Source of the DNA: Candidatus Eiseniibacteriota bacterium
GTDB taxonomy: Bacteria; Eisenbacteria; RBG-16-71-46
Reading direction: 5' to 3'
Length of the DNA stretch: 64,000 bases
Assembly (NCBI GenBank): GCA_963717935.1
Contig: CAVQXP010000004.1
Location: 224,001 to 288,000 of the forward strand
Shown here: one piece after another, positions 4,942-39,396 of the stretch
Layout of the letters: each line of letters begins with the position of its first letter
How positions within the stretch are numbered: the first letter of the stretch is position 1
Program-made: the position numbers and the translations under genes
The notes under the pieces: generated by a model
The model's database searches: none
Told to the model about the DNA's origin: nothing
Seen by the model: the letters and a program-made list of their open reading frames with translations, nothing else

Positions 4942-7314
4942 ATGGCATTCCAATTCGGGCCGCGCCGGGGCCGCTACGTCGAGGTCGCCGCCGCGACGCG
5001 CGACCAGGCACCGGCACTCCCGCCGCAGGAGCTGGAGCACTTCGAGGCCTTCGACCTCATCTACCGCTCGCTCTGCGCGGTGCTCTACAACTACGTCCCC
5101 CTGTCGGGGCACCCTGGCGGCTCCATCTCGTCGGGCCGCTTCGTGGCCGGCCTGCTCTTCGACGCGATGGACTACGACGTCAGCAGCCCGGACCGTGACG
5201 ACGCCGACCTGATCTCGTACGCGGCCGGGCACAAGGCTCTCGGCCTGTACGCCATGTGGGCGCTGCGAAACGAGTTACTGCGAGCCGGCGCACCCGACCT
5301 GCTGCCGCGCGACGAGAGACACCAGTTGCGGCTCGAGGACCTGCTCGGCTTCCGTCGCAATCCCTCCAGCCGCACTCCCCTGTTCCTGAAGTTCAAGGCC
5401 AAGCCGCTCGACGGCCATCCGACGCCGGGCACGCCCTTCCTCCGGCTCTCGACCGGCGCCTCGGGCGTGGGCGTGTCGGCCTCGCTGGGCCTGGCGTTCG
5501 GCGCTCGCGACTACTACGGCGCGGGCGCCCCGCGCGTGCACATCGTCGAGGGCGAGGGCGGCATGACGCCCGGCCGCGTCGTGGAGGCCCTGGCCGGCGC
5601 CGGCACCGCCTCGCTCGACAACGCCGTGCTCCACGTGGACTGGAACCAGGCCTCGATCGACTCGAACCAGGTCTGCCGCGACGGCGAGAAGCCCGGCGAC
5701 TACGTGCAGTGGACGCCGGCGGAGCTGGCCTACCTGCACGACTGGAACGTCGTGTTCGTGCCCGACGGCAAGGACTTCCAGCAGGTGCTCGCCGCCCAGC
5801 GCCTGGCGGTCACGATGGGCAACTCGCAGCCCACGGCCATCGTCTACCGCACCGTCAAGGGCTGGCAGTACGGCGTCGAGGGCCGCGGCTCGCATGGCGC
5901 CGGCCACGCGCTCTGCTCGGACGGCTTCTACCAGGCGGTGCAGCCGCTGCTCGGCGACGCGAAGCAGGCCCTGCCCTGCTGCCAGGGCCTCGACGCGCGG
6001 CGCTGCGCGGGACCAGGCGGCCCGGCGGTCGTGGAGGCCTGCTTCTGGGACGCGCTGCAGGTCATCCGCAAGGCCGTCGAGACGAGGCCCGCGATGGTGC
6101 AGCACCTCGCCGGCCGGCTGCGCGCCGCACGCGAGCGGCTCGACGCCCGGGCGCGCAAGCCCCGCGCGGGCGCGCCCCGCGTCGAGGCCGTGTACGAGAG
6201 CATCGCGCAGGACGGCGGCGCGATCCCCGCGCCCCTGCGGCTCGCCCCCGGCACCGTGACCACGCTGCGCAACGAGCTGGGCCGCACGCTCCACCACCTC
6301 AACCAGGCCAGCGGCGGCGCGTTGTTCGTGGCTTCGGCCGACCTGCTGGGCTCGACCAGCGTGAACAAGGTCACCGAGGGCTTCCCCGCCGGCTTCTGGA
6401 ACACCACGACCAATCCCGGGTCGCGCACGCTCGCGATCGGCGGCATCTGCGAGGACGGCATGAGCGGCGTCGTCTCGGGCCTCGGCAACTTCGGCCGGCA
6501 CATCGGCGTGGCCTCCTCCTACGCGGCCTTCCTCGCCCCGCTCGCCCACGTCTCCGCCCGCCTGCACGCCATCGGCAACCAGGCGCGCCGCGGCGTGGAC
6601 GGCGGGCCGTACCGGCCGCTCATCCTGATCTGCGCGCACGCCGGGTTGAAGACCGGTGAGGACGGCCCGACCCACGCCGACCCGCAGGCGCTCCAGTTGC
6701 TGCAGGAGAACTTCCCGCCCGGGACCGCCATGACGCTCACGCCCTGGGACCCCGCGGAACTGTGGCCGCTGGTCTCCGCCGCGCTCGCGCGACGGCCGGC
6801 CGTGCTCGCGCCGTTCGTCACGCGACCCAGCGAGACCGTGCCCGACCGCGCGAAGCTGGGCCTCGCTCCCGTCGAGGCGGCCCGCACCGGCGTCTACCGG
6901 CTGCGCGCGCCGAGGGCGAAGGCCGACGGCACGCTGGTGCTCCAGGAGAGCGCGGTCACGCTGGCCTTCGTCGCCGACGTGCTGCCCCGCCTCGAGCAGG
7001 AAGGCGTGGACCTGGACATCTACTACGTGGCGAGCGCCGAGCTGTTCGACGCGCTGCCGGCCGCGGAGCGCGAGCGCATCTTCCCCGAGGCGGGCGCCCG
7101 GGAGGCCATGGGCATCACCGGCTTCACCTTCGCCACGATGTACCGCTGGGTGAGGTCCGACCGCGGGCGGGCGGCCACGCTGCATCCCTACCTCAAGGGC
7201 CACTACCCGGGCAGCGGCCAGGGAGCGGCCGTCCTGCACGAGGCGGGGCTGGACGCGGAGGCGCAGCATGCGGCCATCCGCGGCTACCTCGACGTGAAGG
7301 CGAGGAGCCGGTAG
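4942..7314 (+). CDS. Transketolase-like ThDP-dependent enzyme (divergent)
   Basis: SGHPGGSIS, AAGH, LDGHP, STGASGVG, DWNQASID, TVKG, SHG, SADL, GICEDGM, GEDGPTH motifs; start set at ATG 4942 after a G-rich RBS. Confidence 0.85.
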   Translation: MAFQFGPRRGRYVEVAAATRDQAPALPPQELEHFEAFDLIYRSLCAVLYNYVPLSGHPGGSISSGRFVAGLLFDAMDYDVSSPDRDDADLISYAAGHKALGLYAMWALRNELLRAGAPDLLPRDERHQLRLEDLLGFRRNPSSRTPLFLKFKAKPLDGHPTPGTPFLRLSTGASGVGVSASLGLAFGARDYYGAGAPRVHIVEGEGGMTPGRVVEALAGAGTASLDNAVLHVDWNQASIDSNQVCRDGEKPGDYVQWTPAELAYLHDWNVVFVPDGKDFQQVLAAQRLAVTMGNSQPTAIVYRTVKGWQYGVEGRGSHGAGHALCSDGFYQAVQPLLGDAKQALPCCQGLDARRCAGPGGPAVVEACFWDALQVIRKAVETRPAMVQHLAGRLRAARERLDARARKPRAGAPRVEAVYESIAQDGGAIPAPLRLAPGTVTTLRNELGRTLHHLNQASGGALFVASADLLGSTSVNKVTEGFPAGFWNTTTNPGSRTLAIGGICEDGMSGVVSGLGNFGRHIGVASSYAAFLAPLAHVSARLHAIGNQARRGVDGGPYRPLILICAHAGLKTGEDGPTHADPQALQLLQENFPPGTAMTLTPWDPAELWPLVSAALARRPAVLAPFVTRPSETVPDRAKLGLAPVEAARTGVYRLRAPRAKADGTLVLQESAVTLAFVADVLPRLEQEGVDLDIYYVASAELFDALPAAERERIFPEAGAREAMGITGFTFATMYRWVRSDRGRAATLHPYLKGHYPGSGQGAAVLHEAGLDAEAQHAAIRGYLDVKARSR

Positions 7315-7363
7315 CGCAGGCGGCCCGCGTCCGGCCGCCCGCCACCTGCGGCGCTCCGAAGCG

Positions 7364-7401
7364 ACGAGCGACCCGGGCCCTCGCGGACCCGGGTCGCTCG
7401 T
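7364..7401. terminator. 14-bp hairpin between convergent genes, possible bidirectional terminator
   Basis: ACGAGCGACCCGGG (7364-7377) pairs perfectly with CCCGGGTCGCTCGT (7388-7401); no U-tract. Confidence 0.5.
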
Positions 7402-7417
7402 TCACGGCCGGCGCGGA

Positions 7418-7885
7418 CTACTCGGACTGGTTGGCGAGGTAGACCTGCAGGCCCATCTGCGCGATCTGCGCCCGCTGCACCTCGGCCCAGTCCACGTGCT
7501 CCTCTTCCATCTTGAGGATCTTCGTGAGCAGGTCCGCGGTGGCCTGGTCCTCGGCCTCGCGCGCCACGCGGATCGCGGAGTTGTAGGCGCGCACCGCGCT
7601 CAGTTCGGCCTCCTCGTCGTGCGCGACCATCTGCGTGACGTCCTTGCCGATCTTCATGGCGTTGAGCTTCGAGACGACCGGCATGCCATCGAGGAACAGG
7701 ATCCGCTGGATGAGCCACTCGGCGTGCTTCATCTCCTCCATGGCCTGCTTCTCGATGGCGCCGTGGAGTTTCTTGTAGCCCCAGCTCTCGCACATCTCCG
7801 AGTGCACCATGTACTGGCTGATGGCGGTCAGCTCCTCCGCCAGCAACTCGTTCAGGACGGCCAGCACCTTGTCGTTGCCCTTCAT
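7418..7885 (-). CDS. bfr: Bacterioferritin
   Basis: MKGNDKV, ELTAISQYMVH, EEMKHA (ferroxidase ligands and heme Met), RILFLDG, EEEHVDW. Confidence 0.95.
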   Translation of the reverse strand: MKGNDKVLAVLNELLAEELTAISQYMVHSEMCESWGYKKLHGAIEKQAMEEMKHAEWLIQRILFLDGMPVVSKLNAMKIGKDVTQMVAHDEEAELSAVRAYNSAIRVAREAEDQATADLLTKILKMEEEHVDWAEVQRAQIAQMGLQVYLANQSE

Positions 7886-8093
7886 CGTCCGTTCCCTCCT
7901 TGCGATGTGAACGCAGCGTATCCGGGCACGGTGCTCGCCTGCACGTTGCCCGTCAAGTCGGCCTCGATGCCACCGCGGCGCACGGCCGCTGCGCCCACCC
8001 CGACACCCGTCATCCAGCGGGACTTCGCGATGGACTCCCTCCCGCCCGGCCGCCCCCGCTCACCTGCGGGCGGAGAGCCGCAGCCCCGCGCCG

Positions 8094-8597
8094 TCAGCGC
8101 GCCGGGCGCCCCAGCAGCAGCCGGCGCGCGTACGGGATCAGGCCGCCCGCGTCGATGATCGCCTGCCGCGCCTGCGGCAGGGGCTCGATCGCGAACGACT
8201 TGCCCGAGGTCCGGTTCCAGACCTTGCCGTCCTTGATCTCGAGCTCGTCGCCCTCCTCCGCCTCGATCGTCGGGCAGATCACCATGGCGAGCCCGACGTT
8301 GATCGAGTTCTGCAGGAAGATGCGCGCGAAGTGCCGCGCGATGACGGTGACCTCGTAGCCCTTGATGCACGAGGCGGCCTGCTCGCGGGAGGAGCCGCAG
8401 CCGAAGTTGCCCCCCGCCACGATGAACGAGCCGGGCGGGATCTCCTTCGCCTTCAGCCTCCGGTTGAACTCCGCGTCGTCCACGAAGGCGAACTGCGGCG
8501 TCTCCGTCGGCAGCACCGTCGCCATGAACCGGCCCGGGTAGATGATGTCGGTCGAGACGTCGTCGCCGAGCTTGCGCACGACCTTGCCGGTGGCCAT
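8094..8597 (-). CDS. Isopropylmalate isomerase/homoaconitase family small subunit (LeuD-like)
   Basis: DDVSTDIIYPG, NFGCGSSREQA, FARIFLQNSINVGL, AGGL. Confidence 0.9.
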   Translation of the reverse strand: MATGKVVRKLGDDVSTDIIYPGRFMATVLPTETPQFAFVDDAEFNRRLKAKEIPPGSFIVAGGNFGCGSSREQAASCIKGYEVTVIARHFARIFLQNSINVGLAMVICPTIEAEEGDELEIKDGKVWNRTSGKSFAIEPLPQARQAIIDAGGLIPYARRLLLGRPAR

Positions 8598-8598
8598 C

Positions 8599-9888
8599 TC
8601 AGTCCACTCCTCTCGGGTCGGAGATCACGCCGGTGATCGCGCTGGCCGCCGCAACCGCGGTCGAGCACAGGTAGACCTCGGCGTTCGGGTTGCCCATCCG
8701 CCCCTTGAAGTTGCGGTTGGTGGTGGCGAGCGCCGTCTCGCCGTCGGCCAGCGCGCCCTGGTGCACGCCCAGGCACGGGCCGCAGCCGGGATTGCACACC
8801 ACCGCGCCGGCCGCGACGATGTCGCGCAGGTAGCCCAGGCGCAGCGCCTCGGAGTAGATGCGCCACGAGGCCGGGAACACCAGCATGCGGGTGCTGTCCG
8901 CCACGCGCTTGCCCTTGAGGATCTTCGCCGCCACCTCGAGGTCGTCGAGCCGGCCGTTGGTGCACGAGCCGACCACGATCTGCTGCACCTTCTTCCCCTT
9001 CACCTCGCCGATCGGCTTGACGTTGTCCACCGTGTGCGGGCAGGCGATCTGCGGCCCCAGCGTCGTCACGTCGATCTCGATCACCTGGTCGTAGACCGCG
9101 TCCGCGTCCGGCCCGAACAGGTCGAGCGCGTCCTTCACGCCGGCCTCGTCGCGCAGGTAGCGCTCGGTCTCGGCGTCGGGCGGCACCACGCCGGCCGTGG
9201 CGCCGGCCTCCACGGTCATGTTGCAGAGCACCAGCCGGCCCGAGGTCGGCATGGTCCTGATCGCCTCGCCGTGGAACTCGATGACCTTGTAGTTCGCGCC
9301 CTCGGCCGTGAGCTTCCCGACCAGGTGGAGGATCAGGTCCTTCGGGTACACCCCTCGGGGAAGCGGCCCGTTCACCACGACCTTGATGGTGCCGGGCACT
9401 TCCACGTTGAGGATGCTGCCCAGCGCCCACACCGCGGCCATCTCGGTGGCGCCGATGCCGAAGGCGAAGGCCCCGAGCGCGCCGTGCGTCGTGGTGTGGC
9501 TGTCGGTGCCCACCAGCACGAAGCCCGGCCGCACGTAGCCGTTCTCGGGCAGGATCTGGTGGCAGATGCCGCCCACGTCGCCGCGGATGTCGTGGAACTT
9601 GGTGATGCCCTGCTTCGCGATGAAGTCGCGGATCTTCTTCTGGTTGGTCGCCGTCTTCGACGACTCCGCCGGCACGCGGTGGTCGAAGATGATGGCGATG
9701 CGCGACGGATCCCAGACCTTCGGCTCCCGGCCGGTGCCCTGGAAGATCTCGTTGAACTGGTTGATGACGAGCGCGCCGTTCTCGTGCGACATCGCCAGGT
9801 GGACCGGCGGCTCGAGGACGTCGCCCACCGCCACCGCGGGCTTGCCGCAGGCGCGGGCCAGCAGTTTCTGCACGTAGGTCATGCCCAT
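8599..9888 (-). CDS. Isopropylmalate isomerase/homoaconitase family large subunit (LeuC-like, short archaeal type)
   Basis: IFDH, GICHQ, GTDSHTTTHGA, GSCTNGR, PGCGPCLG, TNRNFKGRMG; true start MGMTYVQK at 9888 after AGGAGG. Confidence 0.9.
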   Translation of the reverse strand: MGMTYVQKLLARACGKPAVAVGDVLEPPVHLAMSHENGALVINQFNEIFQGTGREPKVWDPSRIAIIFDHRVPAESSKTATNQKKIRDFIAKQGITKFHDIRGDVGGICHQILPENGYVRPGFVLVGTDSHTTTHGALGAFAFGIGATEMAAVWALGSILNVEVPGTIKVVVNGPLPRGVYPKDLILHLVGKLTAEGANYKVIEFHGEAIRTMPTSGRLVLCNMTVEAGATAGVVPPDAETERYLRDEAGVKDALDLFGPDADAVYDQVIEIDVTTLGPQIACPHTVDNVKPIGEVKGKKVQQIVVGSCTNGRLDDLEVAAKILKGKRVADSTRMLVFPASWRIYSEALRLGYLRDIVAAGAVVCNPGCGPCLGVHQGALADGETALATTNRNFKGRMGNPNAEVYLCSTAVAAASAITGVISDPRGVD

Positions 9889-9917
9889 CGTGATCCCTTC
9901 CTCCTTCAGCGGCCGTG

Positions 9918-11118
9918 TCAGACGATGCCCTTCGACTTGAGCGCTGCCAGCTCCTCCGGCGTCACGCCGACGCCCGCCAGCACCTCCGCGGTGTGCGCGG
10001 ACAGGCGCGGCGGCGGCGCCGTGATGTCGCCCGGGGTCTTCTCGAACTTCGCGGTCAGCCCGAAGAGCGGCAGCGTGCCGAGCCCCTCCGCGGGCACCTG
10101 CTTGAGCGTGCCGCGGTGCCGGATCTGCGGCTGCTGGAGCGCGTCCTCCAGGCTCAGGATCTCCCCGCTCGGGACGTCCTTCGCGTTGAGCAGGTCCACC
10201 CACTCCTTCGTGGGGCGCTCGGCGAGCTTCACCTCGAGCAGCGGCGTCAGCACCTTGCGGTTCTGCTTGCGGATGTCGCGCTTCTGGAAACGCTCGTCGG
10301 TCTTGAGCTCCGGCACGCCGAGCACGTCGCAGACCGACTCCCACTGCTCCTGCTTGTTCGCGGCGATGTTGATGAAGCCGTCCTTCGTCCGGAACATGCC
10401 GGACGGCGCCGCGGTGAAGTTGTCGTTGCCCATGAGCACCGGCTGCTGCTTGCCGATCAGCAGGTTCGCCGCGACCCAGCCCATGAGCGGCATGATGGAA
10501 TCGAGCATCGCGACGTCGATGAACTGCCCCTCGCCCGACCGCTCGCGGTGGTAGAGGGCCGCCATGACGGCGAAGGCCGCGTTGAGCCCGCCCACCGTGT
10601 CGCACACCGGGAAGCCGGCGCGCAGCGGGTTCAGGCGCTCGTCGCCGTTGACGGCCATCTCGCCGCTCAGGCCCTGGATGATCTGGTCGTAGGCCGGCTT
10701 GAACGCGTCCGGCCCGGTCTGCCCGAAGCCCGAGATGGCGCAGTAGACCAGCCGCGGGTTGATCTGCCTTGAGGACGTCGTAGCCGAGCCCGAGCCGACC
10801 CATGACGTCCGGGCGGAAGTTCTCGACCAGCACGTCCGCGTCCTTCACCAGCCGCTTGAAGATCTCCTTGCCCTCGGGAGACTTGGTGTTGAGCGTCACC
10901 GACTTCTTGTTGGCGTTCTGGGCGAGGAAGCTGGTGCCCATCAACTGCTCGTTCAGCGCGGGCACGATGCCGAGCTTGCGGGCCAGGTCGCCGTCCTTCG
11001 GGTTCTCGATCTTGATGACCTCGGCGCCGAGCAGCGCCAGGTGCAGCGTGCAGAACGGCCCCGCCAGCACGTTCGTCAGGTCGAGGACCCGCACTCCGGA
11101 AAGGATGGACCTGCTCAT
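9918..11118 (-). CDS. Class III CoA-transferase (CaiB/BaiF family), +1 frameshift near 10767
   Basis: RVLDLTNVLAGPF, GAEVIKIE, NANKKSVTLN, ENFRP, then in the next frame NPRLVYCAISGFGQTGP, AYDQIIQG, GEGQFIDVAM. The span is 1201 nt = 3n+1. Confidence 0.85.
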
Positions 11119-12029
11119 GAAGGCTCCTTCGTCGCGATGGGCCCCGTCCGGTGGACGTAGCCCTGCATGTCACGTCCGAAATGCGCCGCCACGTCGCGCG
11201 CGACCGCGATCAGACGCTCGAGGTCCACGTCAGGGCGGAGGCCCTGCCGGTGCAGGACGTGGACGAGATCCTCGGTGGCCACGTTGCCGGCCGCCACCTT
11301 CGTGAAGGGGCAGCCGCCCGAGACCCGCGAAGGAGGTCTCGAACGACGTCACGCCCGCGCGCCGGGCCGCGAAGATGTTGGCCATGCCGAGACCGTAGGT
11401 GTTGTGGAAATGGCAGGTGCACTCGACCGCCGGGATCGAGGCCGAGCACCGACGCCGAACAGCCGCTCGACCTGCGCCGGGTCGGCGTGCCCGGCCGTGT
11501 CGGCCAGGCTGATGCTCCCGAGCCCCGCCTCGAGGTAGGCGCGCACCATGCCGAGCACGCGCTCCTCGGGAACCGGCCCTTCGAAGCCGCAGCCGAAGGC
11601 CGACTGCACCGAGACCTGCACCTTCTTCCCCGCCGCCACGGCCTGCTTCGCCGCGCCGATGATGCGCTGCGTGGCCTCTTCGGTCCCCATGCCGGTGTTC
11701 TTCCGGCTGTGGGTCTCGCTCGCCGAGGCGCCCAGGCAGAACATCTCGACCCCGCACTTCAGTCCGCGCTCGAGCCCCTTCTCGTTCAGCACCAGGCCCG
11801 AGAGCACCGTGGCGGAGGTCTTGCCCGCCGTCAGCCGCCGGAACAGCTCGTCGGTGTCGGCCATCTGCGGGACCTTCTCCGGGTGGACGAACGAGCCCAC
11901 CTGGACGATGTCCACGCCGGCGTCCATGACCCGGCGGATCCAGCCCTCCTTCGTCTCGAGCGGGACGACCTGCTTCTCCATCTGCAGCCCGTCCCGCGGG
12001 CCGACTTCGTGGATGACGATGCGCGTCAT
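11115..12029 (-). CDS. HMG-CoA lyase family (DRE-TIM) acyl-CoA lyase, three +1 frameshifts (about 11453, 11433, 11318)
   Basis: EVGPRDGLQ, SFVHPEKVPQMAD, AFGCGFEG, SLADTAG, HFHNTYG, GGCPF and GNVATEDLV are spread over three frames. Confidence 0.85.
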
Positions 12030-12045
12030 GATCTCCCCGGCCGCG

Positions 12046-13167
12046 CTAGAGCTTCGCGGCGATGGCCTCGGCCATCTCCAGCGTCTTCGCCGCACCGCCC
12101 ATGTCGTAGGTGCGCACCTTGCCCTCGCGCACGACCTCGGCGACCGCCTTCTCGACGCGCGCTCCCGCGTCGGTCTGGCCCAGCCAGTCGAGCATCATCT
12201 TGGCCGCGAGGATCGTGGCGATCGGGTTCACCTTGTACTGCCCCGCGTACTTGGGCGCCGAGCCGTGCGTGGGCTCGAACACCGCGAGCTTCTCGCCGAT
12301 GTTGCCCGAGCAGCCGAACCCCAGCCCGCCCACCATCTGCGCGCACAGGTCCGAGATGATGTCGCCGTAGAGGTTCGGCGCCACCAGCACGTCGTAGTTG
12401 AACGGGTTCTTGAGCAGCCACATCGTCATGGCGTCGATGTTGGCGTCGTCCATGGCGATCCCCGGGTAGTCCTTCGCCACCTGCTTCGCCATCTCGAGGA
12501 ACAGCCCGTCGGTGGCGCGCACCACGTTCGCCTTGTGCACCACCGTGACCTTCTTGCGCCCGAACTTCTTCGCGAACTCGAACGCCGCGCGGACGATGCG
12601 CTCCGAGCCCTTCTTCGTGTTGATCTTGCAGGAGATCGCGTACTGGTCGCCCGGCAGGTCCTTGAACGCCTTGAAGGGCGGCGACAGCTCGGTGAGCGTG
12701 TCGCGCAGCTTGTCCGGCACCGTGTTGAACTCGACGCCCGAGTAGAGGTCCTCGGTGTTCTCGCGGAACACGACGAGGTCGATCCCCTCCTTGAAATTGA
12801 GCGGGTTCTGCGCGTAGGCCTTGCACGGCCGCAGGCAGACGTAAAGATCGAAGAGCTGCCGCATGCGCACGATGGGCGAGCGGTAGACCAGGCCCTTGCC
12901 CTGCAGCGCCGGCACCAGCTCCTTCTCCGCCGCCTTCACGGGCTTCGAGGTGATGGCGCCGAACATCGCGGCGTCGACGCTCTTCAGCAGGTCGACCGTG
13001 CGCGCCGGGAAGGCGTCGCCCTCCCTGCACCAGAACTCCCAGCCGATGTCGCCGTGGATGTATTCGGCGTCGAGGCCGACCCTGTCGAGCACGAGCTTCG
13101 CCGCTTCCATCACTTCGATGCCGACGCCGTCACCGGGCAACCATGCGATCTTGAACTTCTTCGCCAC
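12046..13167 (-). CDS. Isocitrate/isopropylmalate/homoisocitrate dehydrogenase family protein
   Basis: PGDGVGIEV, YRSPIVRMRQ, RENTEDLY, VHKANV, NLYGDIISD, EPTHGSAP, NPIATIL; GTG start after AGGAGG. Confidence 0.92.
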   Translation of the reverse strand: MAKKFKIAWLPGDGVGIEVMEAAKLVLDRVGLDAEYIHGDIGWEFWCREGDAFPARTVDLLKSVDAAMFGAITSKPVKAAEKELVPALQGKGLVYRSPIVRMRQLFDLYVCLRPCKAYAQNPLNFKEGIDLVVFRENTEDLYSGVEFNTVPDKLRDTLTELSPPFKAFKDLPGDQYAISCKINTKKGSERIVRAAFEFAKKFGRKKVTVVHKANVVRATDGLFLEMAKQVAKDYPGIAMDDANIDAMTMWLLKNPFNYDVLVAPNLYGDIISDLCAQMVGGLGFGCSGNIGEKLAVFEPTHGSAPKYAGQYKVNPIATILAAKMMLDWLGQTDAGARVEKAVAEVVREGKVRTYDMGGAAKTLEMAEAIAAKL

Positions 13168-13271
13168 GGAGCAACCTCCTCGTTGGGCTCTGCGCTGCGG
13201 GTCCGGACACATCCACGGGTGCTGCCAGGCGAGCGGAGCCGTCGCGACCCGCTCGAACTTGAGTGCGGGGG

Positions 13272-13301
13272 ACTCTAAGGCCTCGGACGACCGATGGACA
13301 A
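13272..13301 (-). promoter_or_regulatory. Possible sigma70 promoter for the dehydrogenase-lyase operon
   Basis: Minus strand TTGTCC-18 nt-TAGAGT. Confidence 0.35.
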
Positions 13302-13485
13302 TGCGAGGAGGGGGCCGCGGGCGCCGAAATTCATTCGGCCGGAGCGAACGCGCCGGCACGGCGCTCGAGGCGGGAGCCGCAAGGGAGGCAAGGGGCTACA
13401 GGAGCGGAAGGCCGCGTGGAGATGCCACGGGGGCCGCCCGGTCAGGCGGACAGGACGGCCCCTGCTGTCGGTCACGGGGAGTGCG

Positions 13486-13740
13486 TCACTCCTCGACCCG
13501 TTCGACGACGACCGTCAGCTTGCTGACCACGGCGGCGATCGCGCCCACCGCGATCAACGCCGGCGCGAGAACCGCACCCACCACACCGACACTGAGCGGA
13601 ATCTCGATGAGCACCCTGCCCTCGGCATTCTTGAGGGTGATCCGTCGGATGTTGCCCTCGTGAACCAGGGCCTTGACCTTGGCCAGAAGCTCCTCGCCGC
13701 TGACGTGGAACTCCTCCGTGCGAGCCGTCTTGTCCGCCAT
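13486..13740 (-). CDS. DUF4342 domain small protein
   Basis: EEFHVSGEELLAKVKALVHEGNIRRI, LIEIPLSVGVVG pattern. Confidence 0.85.
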   Translation of the reverse strand: MADKTARTEEFHVSGEELLAKVKALVHEGNIRRITLKNAEGRVLIEIPLSVGVVGAVLAPALIAVGAIAAVVSKLTVVVERVEE

Positions 13741-13821
13741 TCTTGAGATCCTCCGCCTGTGTTCGCCGCGACGCGCGAGGCCGGCCGCCGACCGTGGATG
13801 CCCCCTGCTTGTCCCCTTCCC

Positions 13822-14190
13822 TTACGCCTTCACGTTGAAGAACAGCTCTCGCGACCGGTGCCGTCCATCGATGCTTGCCCGGCCCGTGGCGACCAGGACA
13901 TAGAGCATGTTCAGCGCGGCCAGGTGCGAGGGCACCTGGCGCCGGCTCTTGGAACGTGTGAAGACGACCTTTGCCGTGAGTCCCTGCTGACCTCGAAGCC
14001 GGCGGTAGAGCTTGTCCACGGCGGCCCTGCCGACGAGGTTGAAGTTGCCCGCGCTCCGCTTGCTGATGGAGACCGACATGACGAAGTACTGCCGCGCGCT
14101 GGACAGGACATAGTAATGCTGGCGCTTGCCTTCCACTTCTCCGTGGAATTCCAACCCCGTGGTCAGGCTCTTGACGCTTAGCCTCATCAC
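13822..14190 (-). CDS. Hypothetical protein
   Basis: 122-aa ORF with protein-like composition and an RBS (GGAGGG); no family recognised. Confidence 0.65.
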   Translation of the reverse strand: MMRLSVKSLTTGLEFHGEVEGKRQHYYVLSSARQYFVMSVSISKRSAGNFNLVGRAAVDKLYRRLRGQQGLTAKVVFTRSKSRRQVPSHLAALNMLYVLVATGRASIDGRHRSRELFFNVKA

Positions 14191-14378
14191 TCGCCCTCCG
14201 CTCGATCACCGACTCCAGTCCACAGGACGCGAAGGCGATCCGGGGGGCGGAGCCGGTTGCCCGTCCTCATCCCCGGCCCCACCCGTGGAAGCCCGCCGCA
14301 CTCGGAGAATCCTACTTCGTCCGACGCGGGGCTTGCACGCAAAGACCGCGGCACGGCCCCTGTCAGCCTCCTGCGGCG

Positions 14379-14720
14379 CTAGCGGTAGCCCCGCTCCCCC
14401 GGCCGGCCGAGCTTCTCGAGCCACAACTGCTCGAGCATCCGCAGGTCCGCGGCCGGGTCGTGGCCCGGCTCCTCCGGCGGCTTGAGCGTGTCCAGCGTCT
14501 CGAACTCGAAGGCCTCCGGGCCGGACTCGTTCCAGTCCTGCTGGAGCGCCCGGTCCGGATGCCCGCCGGCCCCGAGCTGGAAGCGCTGCCGGTTGAGCAT
14601 CCCCGGCACGTCCACGCTCGAACCGATCAGCGACTTCCCGTTCACCGTGTTCCGCACCCGGAACACGCCCATCTGCCGCGGGGATTCCTTGTAGGCGCGG
14701 ATCTGCGCTTTGCGGTCCAT
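14379..14720 (-). CDS. Small GIY-YIG nuclease family protein
   Basis: MDRKAQIRAYKE, MGVFRVRN, SLIGSS, LQQDWNESG, FEFETL; AGGAG RBS. Confidence 0.8.
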   Translation of the reverse strand: MDRKAQIRAYKESPRQMGVFRVRNTVNGKSLIGSSVDVPGMLNRQRFQLGAGGHPDRALQQDWNESGPEAFEFETLDTLKPPEEPGHDPAADLRMLEQLWLEKLGRPGERGYR

Positions 14721-14769
14721 GGCGGGCGCTCCTATGGGACTCCGACGCTCGAGCGAGGGGTCAGGCCCC

Positions 14770-14838
14770 GCCGAACGTCTGAAGTGAACGGACAACTGGC
14801 GGCAAGCCGGCTGCGGCCGCTCGGTGAGAGGCTCAGCC
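14770..14838 (-). repeat. Degenerate attC-like imperfect palindrome
   Basis: Minus strand GGCTGAGC..CCGAGCGG...CCGTTCACTTCAGACGTTCGGC has an R''-L''-L'-R' layout ending in GTTCGGC about 50 bp before the next gene. Confidence 0.4.
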
Positions 14839-14961
14839 TAGGGCTACACCCAGGAGGCCCTCGTGGACCGCGCGGTCGGCGGTCGAGTAGCGGCAGAAGA
14901 CTACCACCTCAACGACGGGGAACTCCCACACCGACGAGCGGCCCTGAGAATGGGGCGGCGG

Positions 14962-15666
14962 TCAGTCCTTCACGCAGCGGACGCAGAAGCCGCTGGCCTT
15001 GTGGCCCGCGTTCCTGCTGACTCCAGCGTTGCCGTGGTCGAGGCCGACGTGCCAGGCGTAGGCAGTGTCCTCTTCCGTCGCGGACCACCACGTGCCGTGG
15101 CTGCCCCGGTCACCGAACCACCCCGCCCGGGCACGGCCACCACCGGGAAGGCCACCGAAGCCGCTGCGATTCGTCGCGCCCCGGTTGGGACGACTCCAGT
15201 GGCTCGCGAGCGTGTCCTTCAGCTTGCCGCCGGCCACCCGCGGGCCGCCCATGCGCTTCACCAACGCCGCCCATTCCGCATCGGAAGGGACGTGCCAGCC
15301 TGCCGGGCACAGGCCGCGCGCGTCGGTGACCGCGTGGAAGTTGTACAGGGCGCCATACATGGCCCGGTATCCCGCACGGTCGTTCTCGTACCAGCAGTAC
15401 GCACCGGTCGTCGCATCGCGCCACTTCGCGTCGTCGGTCGTCAGCGACAACGGGCTGCCATCGCGGTAGCGGGTGACTCTCAGGTCCTGGGCCATCCAGA
15501 CCTGGGCCCCGATCCTGACCGCGCGATAGAGATTTCCGTCGCGGTCCCTCACGGGCTCCTGCGCCGGTGCGGCGCAGGCTGGCAGGCGAGCGTCCACGCC
15601 GGGCAGGCAGCAGAGCGCAAGGCAAACGATGCTCGCTCCCGCGATGCGAGAACGCTTCCAGGTCAT
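14962..15666 (-). CDS. FISUMP (Fibrobacter succinogenes major paralogous) domain secreted protein
   Basis: DRDGNLYRAVRIGAQVWMAQDL, YGALYN, GLCPAGWHVPSDAEW, GFCVRCVKD; signal peptide. Confidence 0.9.
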   Translation of the reverse strand: MTWKRSRIAGASIVCLALCCLPGVDARLPACAAPAQEPVRDRDGNLYRAVRIGAQVWMAQDLRVTRYRDGSPLSLTTDDAKWRDATTGAYCWYENDRAGYRAMYGALYNFHAVTDARGLCPAGWHVPSDAEWAALVKRMGGPRVAGGKLKDTLASHWSRPNRGATNRSGFGGLPGGGRARAGWFGDRGSHGTWWSATEEDTAYAWHVGLDHGNAGVSRNAGHKASGFCVRCVKD

Positions 15667-34613: not shown

Positions 34614-35453
34614 TCATCGCGCCCCACGGCGCCCGGGCCGCGGCGGCGCCCCTCGCGCGACGCGCTCCAGCGCGGCGCTGATCCCGCGCAGCGTGTCCCC
34701 GCCCGAGCGGTGCCCTACCGCGAGCAGGACCGCGACGGCCCGCTCCAGCGCCTTCGCACCCGGCTTCGGCAATGCCAGCGTCTCCAGCACCCCCAGCACC
34801 GGCTCCGCGTAGAAGCCCGCCTGCGCGGCGTCGAGCATCTGCGCCGCGAGGCGCGTGGTGCGGGACGTGCCCCGCTCGAGCTCCGCGCCCAGCCGCTCGC
34901 GCAGGGCGGCCGCGGCGCCCGATGCCTCGCGCGCCGCGTCGAGCCCGGCCAGCACGCCCACGAGCACGTCGTCCCCGGAGGGCGTGAGCCCCTCGCCCAA
35001 CCCGACCAGCGTGGCGAGGCCCCGGACCTCGCCACCCGCCCGGAAGCGCTCGAGCGCGGCGGCGAGCGCGGGCTCGAAGGATGGGGCCGTCGGCTGTGCC
35101 GCCGCACCCCGCGCGAGCGTCCGCAGCCCGGCGGCGGGCAGCGCGCGCAACCGGCGCCGCAGCCGCAGGTCCACGACCTCGAGCCCCGCCAGCTCGATCC
35201 TCAGCGCCCCCGCCTCGACCACGCCGTCCGCGACGCGCACCGGCGCACCCTCGGCGATGCGCCCGAGGTCGCGCCGGGTGAGCGGGACGGCGACGGACCA
35301 GGGATGCAGGGGCGACTTCGCGGGCAGCAGGGCCACCAGCGGACCATCGTCGAGCAGCAGGTTGACCGCCCGGGCGTGGACCGAGACGACGAAGCCGCGC
35401 CGGTCGCCGATCAGCGCTTCGGCGGCGAAGGGTCCGGCGCGGCGGGCGCTCAT
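34614..35453 (-). CDS. DUF2877 protein (YahE/YlbF/AllH-like)
   Basis: LVGLGEGLTPSGDDVLVG and VGHRSGGD motifs. Confidence 0.85.
   Translation of the reverse strand: MSARRAGPFAAEALIGDRRGFVVSVHARAVNLLLDDGPLVALLPAKSPLHPWSVAVPLTRRDLGRIAEGAPVRVADGVVEAGALRIELAGLEVVDLRLRRRLRALPAAGLRTLARGAAAQPTAPSFEPALAAALERFRAGGEVRGLATLVGLGEGLTPSGDDVLVGVLAGLDAAREASGAAAALRERLGAELERGTSRTTRLAAQMLDAAQAGFYAEPVLGVLETLALPKPGAKALERAVAVLLAVGHRSGGDTLRGISAALERVARGAPPRPGRRGAR
34692..34746 (+). repeat. 55-bp direct repeat, copy inside the 3' end of the DUF2877 gene
   Basis: 54/55 identical to 33576-33630; encodes ERAVAVLLAVGHRSGGDT. Confidence 0.9.
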
Positions 35454-35467
35454 CGCTTCGGCGCGGC

Positions 35468-36376
35468 TCAGCGCTTCGGCTTGCGCTTCGCCGCGGCTCC
35501 CCGGGCCGGCGTGGGCCTGCGGCCGTGCAGTTGCGGCGCCAACGCCCCGGCGATGTCGCCGTACTTCGTGAGCTTGCACTTCGCCTTGATCTTCATGAGC
35601 TGCTCGTAGCGCTTGTCGTCCACGAACGCCACGATGCGCGAGATCGAGGACTCGCCGTCCACGAAGCGCCAGGGGAAGCAGCCGACCTCCACGCGCTGGT
35701 TCAGCAGCAGGTCGATGTCCCCGCCCAGGCACTCGGCGTGGATGATGCCCTTGTTGAACATCTCGAGGTGCATCAACTGGTACTTGCTGTCGTCGAAGAA
35801 CTCGGCCAGCGGCTTGCCGTACTTGGCCCGGAAGTGCTGGTCGGCCTGGCGCGCCTGGCGGGGCATCCAGTCGCGGATGATGGTGTTCATCGGGTGGTCG
35901 GCGCTGCCGCAATCCACGCCGATCCAGCGCAGCTTCTTCTTCTTGGCCCACTGGGCGAACTCCCGGTCCGGCCCCGGGTGCTTGACCATGTAGGCGATCT
36001 CGTCGGCCGTGGGCTGGTCCCAGCCGTGGTGGTGGAAGCCGGTGTGGATGATGAGGATGTCGCCGGTGCGGACCTCGACGCGCTCCTCGACCATCTTCGA
36101 GGTGTAGACGTCGTAGGCGCCGCACACGTCCGAGAGGTCCACGATCGCCGCGTCGTGCACCAGGAAGTCCAGGTCGAGCGAGGCGATGTCCTTGCCCGGC
36201 GTGTAGAAGTGGATCTCGCCGTCGAGGTGCGTGCCGAGGTGGTTCGAGTGCGTGAGCAACTGGCCGTTGGCGCCGTTGGGCGCGAGCCGCTTGAAGTACT
36301 TGATCTGCAGCGGCTCGTAGGTCGGCCAGGCCGGCGTGCCGATGCCGAGGGGGATGGTGAGGTCGATGAGCTTCAT
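35468..36376 (-). CDS. Cyclase family metal-dependent amidohydrolase (KynB/isatin hydrolase-like)
   Basis: MKLIDLT, NHLGTHLD (HxGTHxD), GDILIIHTG, IGVD, IHAECL. Confidence 0.88.
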   Translation of the reverse strand: MKLIDLTIPLGIGTPAWPTYEPLQIKYFKRLAPNGANGQLLTHSNHLGTHLDGEIHFYTPGKDIASLDLDFLVHDAAIVDLSDVCGAYDVYTSKMVEERVEVRTGDILIIHTGFHHHGWDQPTADEIAYMVKHPGPDREFAQWAKKKKLRWIGVDCGSADHPMNTIIRDWMPRQARQADQHFRAKYGKPLAEFFDDSKYQLMHLEMFNKGIIHAECLGGDIDLLLNQRVEVGCFPWRFVDGESSISRIVAFVDDKRYEQLMKIKAKCKLTKYGDIAGALAPQLHGRRPTPARGAAAKRKPKR

Positions 36377-36402
36377 GGTCTCCTCCGAAGCGTGACGGCG
36401 CG

Positions 36403-37854
36403 TCAGGCCCTGGCGGCCGGCGCGCCGAGCGACTCTGCGAACGCGAGCAGCGCCTGGCGGAAGCACGCGAGCGGCGGCTTCACCAGGCCGGCGCCCACCA
36501 TGCCGATGCCGGGCTGCTTGTGCGCGATGCCGGTGTTGACGACCGGCACGACGCCGCTCTCGACCACCTTGAGCAGGTCGATGCCGGTCGCCGTGCCGCG
36601 GAAATCGAGCGCCGGGATCTTGTAGACCGGGTGCTCGGCGAGCGTGATGTCGTACATGCGGCGCGTGTAGCCGAGCGCCTGCGCGGCGCTGCCGCCCACG
36701 AACTGGACGATGGCGGGCGCGGCGGCCATGGCCATGCCCCCGAGCCCGGCCGTCTCGGTGATGACCGAGTCGCCGATGTCGGGCGCGGCGTCCGCGGCGC
36801 TGAAGCCCGGCAGGTAGAGCCCGTCCACCATGGGCGCGGGGGCCGTGAACCAGCGCCCGGGAAGCCCCGACACCTGGATGCCGAAGTCGGTCCCGTTGCG
36901 CGCCATGACGCTGACCATGGCCGAGAGCGGGATGCCGGCCGCCGGGTCGAGCGAGCACTTGCTCGCCGCCATGGAGAGATTCAGGAAGAAGTGGTCGTTG
37001 CCGTCGAGGAAGCGCAGGACCGCCGCGATGTCGTCGGCGCCGGCCTTGATCCTCACCAGGTGCGGCGCCAGCGCACGGATGAGCAGCGAGGTGGCCGCGC
37101 GGTTGCGGTTGTGCACCTCGTCGCCCATCTGGAGCGCCTGGGCGATGACGTTGCGCAGGTCGAGCGGCCCGTGCGAGGCCAGCGCCTCGCGCAGCGCAGG
37201 GGCCAGCACCTGCTCCATCCAGCGCAGGCGCACGAGGACCTCGTCGTCGTAGGCGCCGTAGCGCAGCACCTTGCCGAGCCCCTCGTTGAGCGTGGAGAAG
37301 GCGCGGTTGCCGAAGGCCGTGTTCTCGAGAATCCACACCGGCATCGAGGCGGTGACCACGCCGGCCATCGGCCCCACCGTGGCGTGGTGGTGGCAGGGCG
37401 CGAACGCCACCTTGCCCGAGGCCGCGAGCCGCGCGGCCTCCTCGGGCGTCTTCGCCAGCCCTTCGTAGACCAGGCCGCCCATCACCGCGCCGCGCGTCGG
37501 CCCGCTCATGCGCTCCCACTCGACCGGCGGGCCGGCGTGGAGCACGAGGTCCCGGCGCATGCCGGGGACGGCGTCGAGCGCCGTGCCGATGCCGACGATG
37601 ACCGGCCGGGCCGCGAGCAGCCGCTCGACCGACTGGCGGGTCGCCGCGGCGATGTCGGCGCGCACCGCGCCGTCCGCGCCGAGGCAGGCGTCGAGCGCGG
37701 CGAGCACCGCGGGGTCGCCGCCCGCGGGGGGCCGCCAGTCCACGTCCACCGCGCTGCCGCCCGCGCGGCGCAGGTCGGTCGCGAAGGAGGCCAGGCCGAC
37801 ATTCACGACCGACAGCTCCGCGCCGAAGAGCGCGAGCACCTGCTCGACGTTCAT
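36403..37854 (-). CDS. DUF1116 protein (YahG/YlbE/AllG-like) with N-terminal extension domain
   Basis: VLHAGPP, VGPMAG, NEGLGKVLRYGA, MGDEVHNRN, NDHFFLNL, DIGDSVITE, NTGIAH. Confidence 0.9.
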   Translation of the reverse strand: MNVEQVLALFGAELSVVNVGLASFATDLRRAGGSAVDVDWRPPAGGDPAVLAALDACLGADGAVRADIAAATRQSVERLLAARPVIVGIGTALDAVPGMRRDLVLHAGPPVEWERMSGPTRGAVMGGLVYEGLAKTPEEAARLAASGKVAFAPCHHHATVGPMAGVVTASMPVWILENTAFGNRAFSTLNEGLGKVLRYGAYDDEVLVRLRWMEQVLAPALREALASHGPLDLRNVIAQALQMGDEVHNRNRAATSLLIRALAPHLVRIKAGADDIAAVLRFLDGNDHFFLNLSMAASKCSLDPAAGIPLSAMVSVMARNGTDFGIQVSGLPGRWFTAPAPMVDGLYLPGFSAADAAPDIGDSVITETAGLGGMAMAAAPAIVQFVGGSAAQALGYTRRMYDITLAEHPVYKIPALDFRGTATGIDLLKVVESGVVPVVNTGIAHKQPGIGMVGAGLVKPPLACFRQALLAFAESLGAPAARA

Positions 37855-39386: not shown

Positions 39387-39396
39387 GTCTCCCCCG

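Follow-up and report, generated by a model that had tools for sequence, protein, structure and literature searches.

The operon described here raises the question of how an isomerase and a decarboxylating dehydrogenase of the families that lengthen 2-oxoacids could operate where the genes lying between theirs encode an acyl-coenzyme A (CoA) lyase and a CoA-transferase, and where no synthase accompanies them. It occupies positions 8094–13167, on the minus strand, of a 64-kb stretch of a Candidatus Eiseniibacteriota contig (CAVQXP010000004.1), hereafter called the window, whose G+C content is about 70%. Comparison with related loci leads us to propose, with moderate confidence, that the operon provides a near-equilibrium link, independent of any synthase, through which a 2-oxoacid is interconverted with its next shorter counterpart and an acetyl unit. 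Its five genes, listed in the order of transcription, are the following.

12046..13167, minus strand: beta-decarboxylating dehydrogenase of the Iso_dh family (Pfam PF00180), 373 residues, GTG start, intact

11115..12029, minus strand: putative acyl-CoA lyase of the hydroxymethylglutaryl-CoA (HMG-CoA) lyase family (DRE-TIM), lying in three frames, with Pfam HMGL-like in three pieces

9918..11118, minus strand: class III (CaiB/BaiF) CoA-transferase, lying in two frames (Pfam CoA_transf_3, PF02515)

8599..9888, minus strand: large subunit of an aconitase-family hydro-lyase (LeuC/HacA type), intact (Pfam Aconitase, 332 bits)

8094..8597, minus strand: small subunit of an aconitase-family hydro-lyase (LeuD/DmdB type), intact (Pfam Aconitase_C)

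The genes are tightly packed, with an ATGA overlap of the lyase stop and transferase start codons and gaps of 16 nucleotides (nt) between dehydrogenase and lyase, 29 nt between transferase and LeuC and 1 nt between LeuC and LeuD. The initial annotation, made from the sequence alone, had described a compact five-gene operon without LeuA, CimA or homocitrate synthase, and this description holds: all five genes are in place, and none of the 47 further window open reading frames (ORFs) scanned was reported to contain another HMGL-like domain or a LeuA-type or citrate-synthase-type one. No Claisen-condensing synthase was found beside the isomerase and dehydrogenase, either in the window ORFs or in 256 neighbour ORFs of related loci. 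CitE (HpcH/HpaI), CitF and the acyl carrier protein (ACP) subunit of citrate lyase were likewise not found in the window ORFs scanned.

The arrangement recurs, hardly altered, in many distantly related and mostly uncultured bacteria, Holophagaceae and Ignavibacteriaceae among them. A search of a collection with a single genome for each species yielded 587 confirmed relatives of the dehydrogenase, of which the best 80 were analysed as loci of at most 17 kb, whose gene content was scored by tblastn with pieces of the window's proteins. These 80 loci represent at least 13 phyla, the labels being Acidobacteriota (19), Ignavibacteriota and Bacteroidota (10 each), Chloroflexota (6), Eisenbacteria (5), Pseudomonadota (4), Elusimicrobiota and Bacillota (3 each), Myxococcota, Verrucomicrobiota, Gemmatimonadota and Thermoplasmatota (2 each) and Sumerlaeota (1), with 10 loci unlabelled. 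The order dehydrogenase, lyase, CoA-transferase, LeuC, LeuD is complete in 42 loci, and in 7 more (L006, L007, L010, L016, L022, L056 and L063) it is consistent but cut by a contig end; its recurrence in 49 of the 80 loci is far beyond chance. Conservation of the gene order had been put forward in the initial annotation as a check on its reading, to be given up if the operon proved not to be conserved, an objection that clearly fails. The remaining loci include four with a rearranged or partial operon (L026, L041, L048 and L050), three with the dehydrogenase and LeuCD only (L060, L068 and L073) and five with a solitary dehydrogenase gene, downstream of which less than 1 kb of sequence is available. 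The dehydrogenases of the nearest relatives, labelled Candidatus Eisenbacteria, show 91–92% protein identity to that of the window. Across the loci, identity to the window is 74–92% for the dehydrogenase and 60–95% for the other four proteins, G+C content ranges from 30 to 75% and phyla are intermixed on the dehydrogenase tree, which together suggests horizontal spread combined with strong constraint. No gene was found to travel with the operon across phyla among 256 flanking ORFs from 64 loci.

The strongest evidence for a role of the lyase and transferase at the C–C step of a single pathway, to which the isomerase and dehydrogenase would also belong, is the exchange of the lyase system within these loci. 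Seven of them (five complete, two cut) encode, precisely between dehydrogenase and LeuC, a protein of about 310 residues with a KRCGH motif that belongs to the phosphoenolpyruvate mutase (PEPM)/isocitrate lyase (ICL) family (PEP_mutase/ICL). The five-gene form and this four-gene form retain the same isomerase. On the dehydrogenase tree the PEPM loci are nested among the five-gene loci, L027 for example lying inside an Anaerolineae clade of the latter, and the PEPM label needs seven changes, at least five of which are forced by well-supported branches. Among curated families, the PEPM-type lyase scores highest against methylisocitrate lyase, with 219.7 bits where 354 are required. Of solved structures, it most resembles the petal death protein, which is an alkylmalate lyase (E value 8.5e-52), and also methylisocitrate lyases; the PEPM-type lyases are 29–34% identical to Escherichia coli PrpB. 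All six PEPM-type lyases aligned have Met, Met and Phe at the positions of PrpB Thr212, Arg241 and Arg270, residues that presumably bind the succinate portion of the substrate, and this swap would fit a small leaving acid such as acetate. Arg and Ser are found at the positions of PrpB Met232 and Leu234, the second of which is presumably part of the methyl pocket.

Two further contexts involve other lyase systems. In L045, the dehydrogenase gene comes last, after genes for SucC-like and SucD-like proteins and a citryl-CoA lyase (268.5 bits, cut-off 245), and no LeuCD is encoded nearby. In L069 (5215–17083), the order is a VorB-type 2-oxoacid:ferredoxin oxidoreductase, the dehydrogenase, an HD-domain protein, a fused LeuC–LeuD-like protein (loop 'RHLAIT'), a second LeuCD-like pair (loop 'YTYT'), a CitD/CitE fusion and a CitF-like ORF; the LeuCD-like sets are only distant from the operon's isomerase, and L069 appears to be a different assembly of the same kind of pathway. 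Four unrelated systems that cleave or form citrate-like acids are therefore found around one and the same dehydrogenase, which argues for a joint role at the C–C step. The lyase exchange and the contexts of L045 and L069 indicate a core in which a lyase system for hydroxy-acids is combined with an isomerase and a decarboxylating dehydrogenase of the NADP type. The repeated swap of four unrelated lyase systems on one core is a clear natural case of non-orthologous displacement.

The order of the steps in the proposed pathway follows from the chemistry of the enzyme families; for the substrate, the CoA donor and the direction we infer the following scheme. The class III CoA-transferase would put CoA on the -CH2-COOH arm of a 2-substituted malate, that is, a citrate-like tertiary hydroxy-acid, and the HMG-CoA-lyase-family enzyme would cleave the CoA ester to acetyl-CoA and a 2-oxoacid, or catalyse the reverse. 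With acetyl-CoA as the CoA donor, the pair would be a soluble two-protein counterpart of citrate lyase, with a net release of acetate. The LeuC/LeuD-type iron–sulfur (Fe-S) hydro-lyase would convert the 2-substituted to the 3-substituted malate, which the NADP-type beta-decarboxylating dehydrogenase would interconvert with the longer 2-oxoacid and CO2. Our best guess is that the acid has a carboxy-alkyl side chain (citrate and/or homocitrate), so that 2-oxoglutarate and oxaloacetate, or 2-oxoadipate and 2-oxoglutarate, would be interconverted, and that the module works by reductive carboxylation followed by cleavage, shortening the chain in the amino-acid fermentation of anaerobes. Since a free-acid lyase can replace transferase and lyase together, the pair may recycle acetyl-CoA and free acetate in the manner of citrate lyase, and the net reaction may be the release or uptake of acetate. 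An acetate-releasing lyase step is fitted by an acetate uptake transporter gene (AceTr_1; 164.1 bits, cut-off 50) located at 13190–13825 of L004, between the genes for LeuD and a bacterioferritin. A reversible route through lyase and transferase, conserving the thioester when run forward, had been envisaged from the window alone: its central element, one synthase-free operon with the pair at the C–C step, is borne out by the lyase swaps and the citryl-CoA-lyase and citrate-lyase contexts, while conservation of the thioester becomes only one option.

The dehydrogenase bears on the nature of the acid. The protein matches the Iso_dh profile over its full length (302.7 bits against a gathering score of 27; profile positions 1–348 of 348) and is 38% identical to E. 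coli isocitrate dehydrogenase (Icd) and 37% to LeuB. Its best curated scores, both below cut-off, are those of AksF2_Meth, a homoisocitrate dehydrogenase (343.8 against 540), and LEU3_arch (332.3 against 409.8). Also missed are AksF_Meth (304.4 against 500), the NADP isocitrate dehydrogenase equivalogs TIGR00183 (223.8 against 567.3) and PRK08997 (291.1 against 510) and the LeuB equivalogs TIGR00169 (203.9 against 353.2) and PRK03437 (277.1 against 393). Conservation of the dehydrogenase is unusually high: the best 120 clusters in a large protein set are 83–94% identical to it and bear generic names only. The loop 'YRSPIVRMRQ', kept in 77 of 81 sequences, is unlike the 'ERGALLPLR' of E. coli LeuB; the dehydrogenase and Icd have in common the Arg-Ser pair, an insert after 'ENTEDLY' and the motif 'APKYAGQ.KVNP'. 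An invariant extra Arg is found in 'SPIVRMR', two residues ahead of the conserved Arg. The likeness of 'YRSPIV' to homoisocitrate dehydrogenases, already remarked upon in the initial annotation, is seen again in the alignment with the Schizosaccharomyces pombe enzyme (3ty3), in which 'ysspivalrk' faces 'yrspivrmrq' of the window, the fungal loop being 'SSPIVALR'. In the NADP region, the window reads 'APKYAGQYKVNP', as compared with 'APKYAGQDKVNP' in Icd and 'APDIAGKNIANP' in LeuB. The Icd residues K344, Y345, V351 and Y391 are all present in the dehydrogenase, LeuB having Asp-Ile at the first two, and the cofactor pair is KY in 75 and KH in 6 of the 81 sequences; Lys344 and Tyr345 of Icd being, as we assume, its NADP determinants, the dehydrogenase is predicted to be of the NADP type.

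The other four proteins have the following matches. The pieces of the window's lyase score 163, 37.2 and 28.7 bits against PRK05692, the HMG-CoA-lyase subfamily, which the intact orthologue of L003 passes (271.1, cut-off 246), and the closest solved relative is the HMG-CoA lyase 1ydo (E value 8.3e-34, over the first 199 residues). The closest solved relative of the transferase is the succinate-hydroxymethylglutarate CoA-transferase 9br6 (1.9e-36); the intact L003 transferase passes no equivalog, the best being succinate-glutarate CoA-transferase (307.6 against 750). The LeuC-like subunit passes the subfamilies PRK00402 (539.7, cut-off 385), IPMI_arch TIGR02086 (505.8, cut-off 410.15) and hacA_fam TIGR01343 (496.5, cut-off 385.7) and misses the equivalogs, including HacA_Meth (472.7 against 550), and the LeuD-like subunit passes TIGR02087 (118.3 against 108.95) and misses HacB2_Meth (116.8 against 230). 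The module as a whole misses all the curated equivalog cut-offs of isocitrate dehydrogenase, homoisocitrate dehydrogenase, LeuB, LeuC, LeuD and HacAB, and passes only those of superfamilies or subfamilies. The best solved match of LeuD is the small subunit of the Methanocaldococcus jannaschii isopropylmalate/citramalate isomerase (3vba, 1.6e-31). Its loop reads 'FMAT', against 'YLVY' in 3vba and 'YLRT' in the homoaconitase 2pkp, the Arg of this methanogen homoaconitase loop being, we assume, the reader of the distal carboxylate; the motif 'YPGR[FY]MATVLP' is found in 47 of 51 LeuD orthologues, and two more have V or H at the F/Y position (49 of 51). In public databases the names are all generic ('hydroxymethylglutaryl-CoA lyase' for the lyase, '3-isopropylmalate dehydrogenase' for the dehydrogenase), and when the lyase of L039 (labelled Chloroflexia) was used as query, the matches listed were 75–100% identical and all named HMG-CoA lyase.

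Taken together, these comparisons make an acid of the citrate or homocitrate type fairly probable, citramalate or another alkyl-substituted acid a weaker candidate and something else improbable. The Arg-Ser pair and insert of Icd, the extra Arg in 'SPIVRMR' and the match to the fungal homoisocitrate dehydrogenase loop all point to a carboxy-alkyl acid. The homoisocitrate dehydrogenases among the best curated scores of the dehydrogenase suggest the same, and Arg and Ser at PrpB positions 232 and 234 of the PEPM-type lyases also point that way. The contexts of L045 and L069 point to citrate. By analogy, a carboxy-alkyl acid would also suit the nearest characterised relatives of the transferase and lyase, which use hydroxymethylglutarate or its CoA ester, the methyl analogue of citrate. 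Hydroxymethylglutarate itself is, on chemical grounds, an impossible substrate for an aconitase-type isomerase or a beta-decarboxylating dehydrogenase; as the partners in the operon could not use it, a 2-hydroxy acid such as citrate, its carboxy analogue, is indicated instead. A citramalate-type acid would agree with the 'FMAT' loop of LeuD and with the (R)-citramalate precedent of Chloroflexus. Reading the substrate from the LeuD loop alone was tried and rejected, being contradicted by the dehydrogenase loop and the variant lyases. Because the loops are near-invariant (77 of 81 dehydrogenases, 49 of 51 LeuD proteins), all variants probably handle the same acid.

Several observations weigh against the proposed link or its details. 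A solitary dehydrogenase gene, with 3.4 kb or more of flanking sequence on each side, is found in 12 of the 80 loci, so that the enzyme may have an independent housekeeping role. At the position of Icd Asn115 it has Ile ('RSPIV' as compared with 'RSLNV', Ser113 being retained), and a Val is aligned with Arg85 of the Thermus homoisocitrate dehydrogenase; taking Ser113 and Asn115 to bind the gamma-carboxylate and Arg85 to be a substrate-loop residue, the dehydrogenase, as judged from its residues, appears not to carry the full known substrate signature of either isocitrate dehydrogenase or homoisocitrate dehydrogenase. In LeuD, the Ala in place of the homoaconitase Arg and the match to 3vba point to a small or hydrophobic side chain, as in citramalate. 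The direction is argued from thermodynamics and from what ICL-family lyases normally do, and of the matches listed for the dehydrogenase and the L039 lyase none is a named, characterised orthologue. Hints from genomic context are few and point in different ways. Genes of the saccharopine dehydrogenase family border the operon in two Elusimicrobia loci, together with an AlaDH/PNT-type gene in L017 (13056–15855) and on their own in L072 (3715–4926 and 11944–13449), which may be a link to lysine/2-aminoadipate metabolism; the only curated NCBIfam match of these flanking genes is a weak one of the AlaDH/PNT-type gene to alanine dehydrogenase, far below cut-off. Three Chloroflexota loci have Liv-type ATP-binding cassette (ABC) transporter genes, and three Bacteroidota/Ignavibacteriota loci have oxidoreductase genes.

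As to direction, carboxylation with shortening of the chain is favoured on balance, because ICL-family lyases cleave in known pathways, because the condensation of two free acids would by our estimate be unfavourable at cellular concentrations and because the dehydrogenase has the NADP determinants of Icd. The same enzymes might instead run in the elongating, biosynthetic direction, an alternative that we regard as credible but clearly less probable. Acetyl-CoA and a 2-oxoacid would then give a hydroxyacyl-CoA, whose CoA would be handed to acetate or succinate rather than hydrolysed, and isomerisation and oxidative decarboxylation would yield the longer 2-oxoacid, for example 2-oxobutyrate from pyruvate (for isoleucine, via (R)-citramalate) or 2-oxoglutarate from oxaloacetate (for glutamate). 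Neither a transporter nor a regulator belongs to the operon, which stands in varied contexts, as is often the case for biosynthetic operons; its LeuD loop is without the Arg of homoaconitase and most resembles the isopropylmalate/citramalate isomerase subunit. There is also a precedent in Chloroflexus, whose CaiB-family transferase and HMGL-family lyase are reportedly specific for (R)-citramalate and its CoA ester (Friedmann et al. 2006, 2007). The dehydrogenase loop, with its extra Arg and Ser, is not LeuB-like; LeuCD and LeuB are normally shared between the citramalate pathway and leucine synthesis, so that a dedicated set would be unusual; and no ilv or leu genes were found among the 256 neighbour ORFs scanned. 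The pair has repeatedly been swapped for an ICL/PEPM-family lyase acting on the free acid. Known enzymes of this family act in cleavage, and for such a lyase elongation would mean the unfavourable condensation of free acetate with a 2-oxoacid. Rfam had no match in window positions 7000–15000 (E up to 1), nor, at gathering scores, upstream of the operon in eight loci, and there is thus no riboswitch clue to the end product.

As to the precedent in Chloroflexus, a review gives the EC entries of the pair, mentions its possible backward run to make citramalate and lists it as a possible indirect route to (R)-citramalate (PMC8307300), and the Chloroflexus genome paper reports no citramalate synthase gene (PMC3150298).

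The favoured reading, a chain-shortening link, has also to be set against the frame breaks in the window's lyase and transferase genes. Alignment with the intact loci L001–L003 places three single-base insertions in the lyase gene, near 11452, 11431 and 11320, and one in the transferase gene, near 10766, so that all four breaks are +1 insertions relative to these loci. Frame plots of G+C content at third codon positions (GC3) and three-frame translations show that the transferase is broken once and that the lyase changes frame twice; the dehydrogenase, LeuC and LeuD genes have none. The HMGL-like pieces span profile positions 2–177, 182–224 and 226–260 of 260, and the CoA_transf_3 pieces positions 1–112 (142.4 bits) and 145–366 (200 bits) of 366. 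Where all pieces were found in a related locus, they lie in a single frame in 43 of 44 cases for the lyase and 45 of 46 for the transferase. The exception in both cases is L004, the closest relative of the window (93% DNA identity across the operon), in which both genes are split. This locus, labelled as a chromosome-level metagenome-assembled genome (MAG), has a dozen single-base gaps of its own, some of them in LeuC and none at the window's sites. When the window is compared with L004, the ratio of non-synonymous to synonymous substitution rates (dN/dS) comes to 0.25 in the lyase gene and 0.17 in the transferase gene, as against 0.15–0.21 in the three unbroken genes; GC3 is 0.94–0.99 in each gene piece; and the corrected frames contain no in-frame stop and have lost no catalytic motif, GPRDGLQ, HFHNTYG and GLGGCPF all being legible in the lyase. 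As the insertions are absent from nearly all other loci and dN/dS is 0.17–0.25, an assembly error is the likely cause of the four breaks rather than real inactivation, and the operon, judged by its sequence, is probably functional in the organism.

That the lyase and transferase are genuinely dead here, recent frameshifts having left only the dehydrogenase and LeuCD, is a doubtful alternative, but one to which we give some weight. The four insertions cluster within 0.7 kb of the two genes and spare the dehydrogenase, LeuC and LeuD, and the remaining 60 kb hold about one or two other candidate breaks; such clustering is not predicted by random error alone, which leaves room for a recent real inactivation and is a further point against a functional operon in this genome. 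Both genes are split in L004 too, the three loci with only the dehydrogenase and LeuCD (see above) show that such a state exists, and Thermoanaerobaculia loci without a lyase in cis offer a parallel. Yet none of the four +1 changes is common to L004, whose dozen gaps of the same kind, LeuC included, look like a property of the assemblies; dN/dS of the two genes resembles that of intact ones; GC3 is high in each piece; and the corrected frames are free of stops and motif losses. The frameshifts noticed in the initial annotation are thus present in the sequence, and its reservation that both genes might be dead is not favoured by the intact frames in the related loci or by dN/dS. A frameshift shared by the window and L004 by descent, hinted at by one MAFFT run, was rejected, local alignment placing the extra bases about 12 nt apart.

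Elsewhere in the window there is one clear break, near 54090, in a fused DctQ/DctM gene of a tripartite ATP-independent periplasmic (TRAP) transporter (52429–54224, minus strand): the start of DctQ lies in another frame, and the Pfam DctQ match begins at profile position 29. DctP and TAtT genes adjoin it at 54233–56229. A doubtful case at 58682–59669 (plus strand) consists of two high-GC3 ORFs of 189 and 154 codons in different frames that have about 40 nt in common. Both lack a Pfam match and could represent either two small genes or one more frame break. Widespread frameshifting across the window was considered and discarded, the gene for the alpha subunit of an electron-transfer flavoprotein (ETF), cut short by GC3 segmentation, having proved intact.

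The last alternative, that two unrelated functions merely adjoin, namely an HMG-CoA lyase and a hydroxymethylglutarate CoA-transferase for leucine/HMG breakdown and LeuB/LeuCD paralogues for leucine synthesis, is very improbable: it has in its favour the public names 'hydroxymethylglutaryl-CoA lyase' and '3-isopropylmalate dehydrogenase', the intact lyase orthologue above the HMG-CoA-lyase subfamily cut-off and the succinate-hydroxymethylglutarate enzyme as best solved transferase relative, but the lyase and transferase lie between dehydrogenase and LeuCD, with the order unchanged, in 49 of the 80 loci, from many phyla, with overlapping start and stop codons, and are replaced in place while dehydrogenase and LeuCD stay, no other leucine-pathway genes lie nearby and all four LeuB/LeuC/LeuD equivalog cut-offs are missed.

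The proposed link shares elements with several known systems. The succinyl-CoA:(R)-citramalate CoA-transferase (EC 2.8.3.20) and (R)-citramalyl-CoA lyase (EC 4.1.3.46) of Chloroflexus aurantiacus belong to the same families, the likeness being at family level, and follow the same logic, in which a tertiary hydroxy-dicarboxylate is activated and then split to acetyl-CoA and a 2-oxoacid; as far as we have checked, no description places that pair in a fixed position between a decarboxylating dehydrogenase and an isomerase of the LeuCD type. Citrate lyase (CitDEF) and citramalate lyase perform the same net chemistry as proposed here, acyl exchange with an acetyl thioester followed by a cleavage that restores this thioester, so that acetate and a 2-oxoacid are set free, but citrate lyase does so with a CitF transferase, a CitE of the HpcH/HpaI fold and an ACP-bound prosthetic group, where the operon has CaiB-family and HMGL-family enzymes that would act on free CoA. 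Citryl-CoA synthetase with citryl-CoA lyase (Hydrogenobacter type, a set such as that of L045) and ATP-citrate lyase likewise form a CoA ester that a lyase then splits; they differ in an activation that costs ATP and in a lyase homologous to citrate synthase, in place of CoA transfer and an HMGL-family lyase. The elongation modules LeuA-LeuCD-LeuB, CimA, homocitrate synthase/HacAB/homoisocitrate dehydrogenase and AksADEF have the same isomerase and dehydrogenase steps and families. The operon is unlike them in that no synthase was found in the ORFs scanned, in the NADP-type residues and Icd-type insert of its dehydrogenase and in the equivalog cut-offs missed. The module also parallels the citrate-to-2-oxoglutarate arm of the tricarboxylic acid (TCA) cycle. 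DmdAB with 2,3-dimethylmalate lyase, in nicotinate fermentation, and the petal death protein recall the four-gene variant, a LeuCD-type hydro-lyase being combined with an alkylmalate lyase of the ICL/PEPM family; the dimethylmaleate hydratase pathway is not known to include a decarboxylating dehydrogenase. HMG-CoA lyase and SUGCT, finally, are the closest solved relatives of lyase and transferase (1ydo and 9br6). Full-text searches of the literature found no description of this operon, of a homocitryl-CoA lyase or of such a CoA-transferase-based cleavage of citrate.

The surroundings of the operon in the window are as follows. Upstream, positions 13200–14380 have no high-GC3 frame, a G+C content below that of the neighbouring sequence and no Rfam match, and include an ORF of 122 residues and atypical composition (13822–14190, minus strand). 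On the other side, LeuD and a bacterioferritin gene are about 200 nt apart, with no AceTr_1 gene between them. The segment 356–7311 holds, on the minus strand, ETF alpha and beta genes with that of a 638-residue Fe-S/CCG-domain oxidoreductase and, on the plus strand, a few kilobases from the operon, a gene for a transketolase-like protein of 786 residues. ETF or acyl-CoA dehydrogenase genes adjoin the orthologous dehydrogenase in L066, L076 and L077. The last two, labelled Methanomassiliicoccales, encode a dehydrogenase 82% identical to the bacterial ones beside an acyl-CoA dehydrogenase, and reflect either a transfer into archaea or mis-binned bacterial contigs. Farther away, at 34629–43097 on the minus strand, genes for AllH-like, cyclase, AllG-like and CoA-ligase-like (FdrA-type) proteins are clustered with those for a xanthine-dehydrogenase Mo/2Fe-2S subunit and FAD subunit, in what looks like a purine/oxamate breakdown set.

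If the proposed link is real, a very widespread gene set is at present misnamed as 'HMG-CoA lyase', 'CoA transferase' and 'isopropylmalate dehydratase/dehydrogenase', and metabolic reconstructions would change, for example in calls of leucine degradation or biosynthesis and in gaps of the TCA cycle. The gene set would instead encode a distinct part of the central or fermentative metabolism of carbon in phyla for which metagenomes are almost the sole source, among them Eisenbacteria, Acidobacteriota, Ignavibacteriota, Bacteroidota, Chloroflexota, Elusimicrobiota and Gemmatimonadota. Because of the lyase exchange, a few recombinant proteins would suffice for a direct test of the biochemistry. 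The module would add a reversible acetate-linked C–C lyase route, and it would offer a compact, cofactor-light module for engineering the chain length of 2-oxoacids. More speculatively, and with rather low probability, many uncultured anaerobes may possess an undescribed route, independent of ATP and of any synthase, from 2-oxoadipate through 2-oxoglutarate to oxaloacetate, with one acetyl unit released per turn, each turn comprising an NADPH-dependent reductive carboxylation, an isomerisation and a lyase step that would either recycle CoA or be free of cofactors. By such a route glutamate, and perhaps lysine, would be fermented to acetate and pyruvate without B12-dependent mutases or radical dehydratases, and in the opposite direction the module would stand in, in a thioester-neutral way, for citrate synthase or homocitrate synthase.

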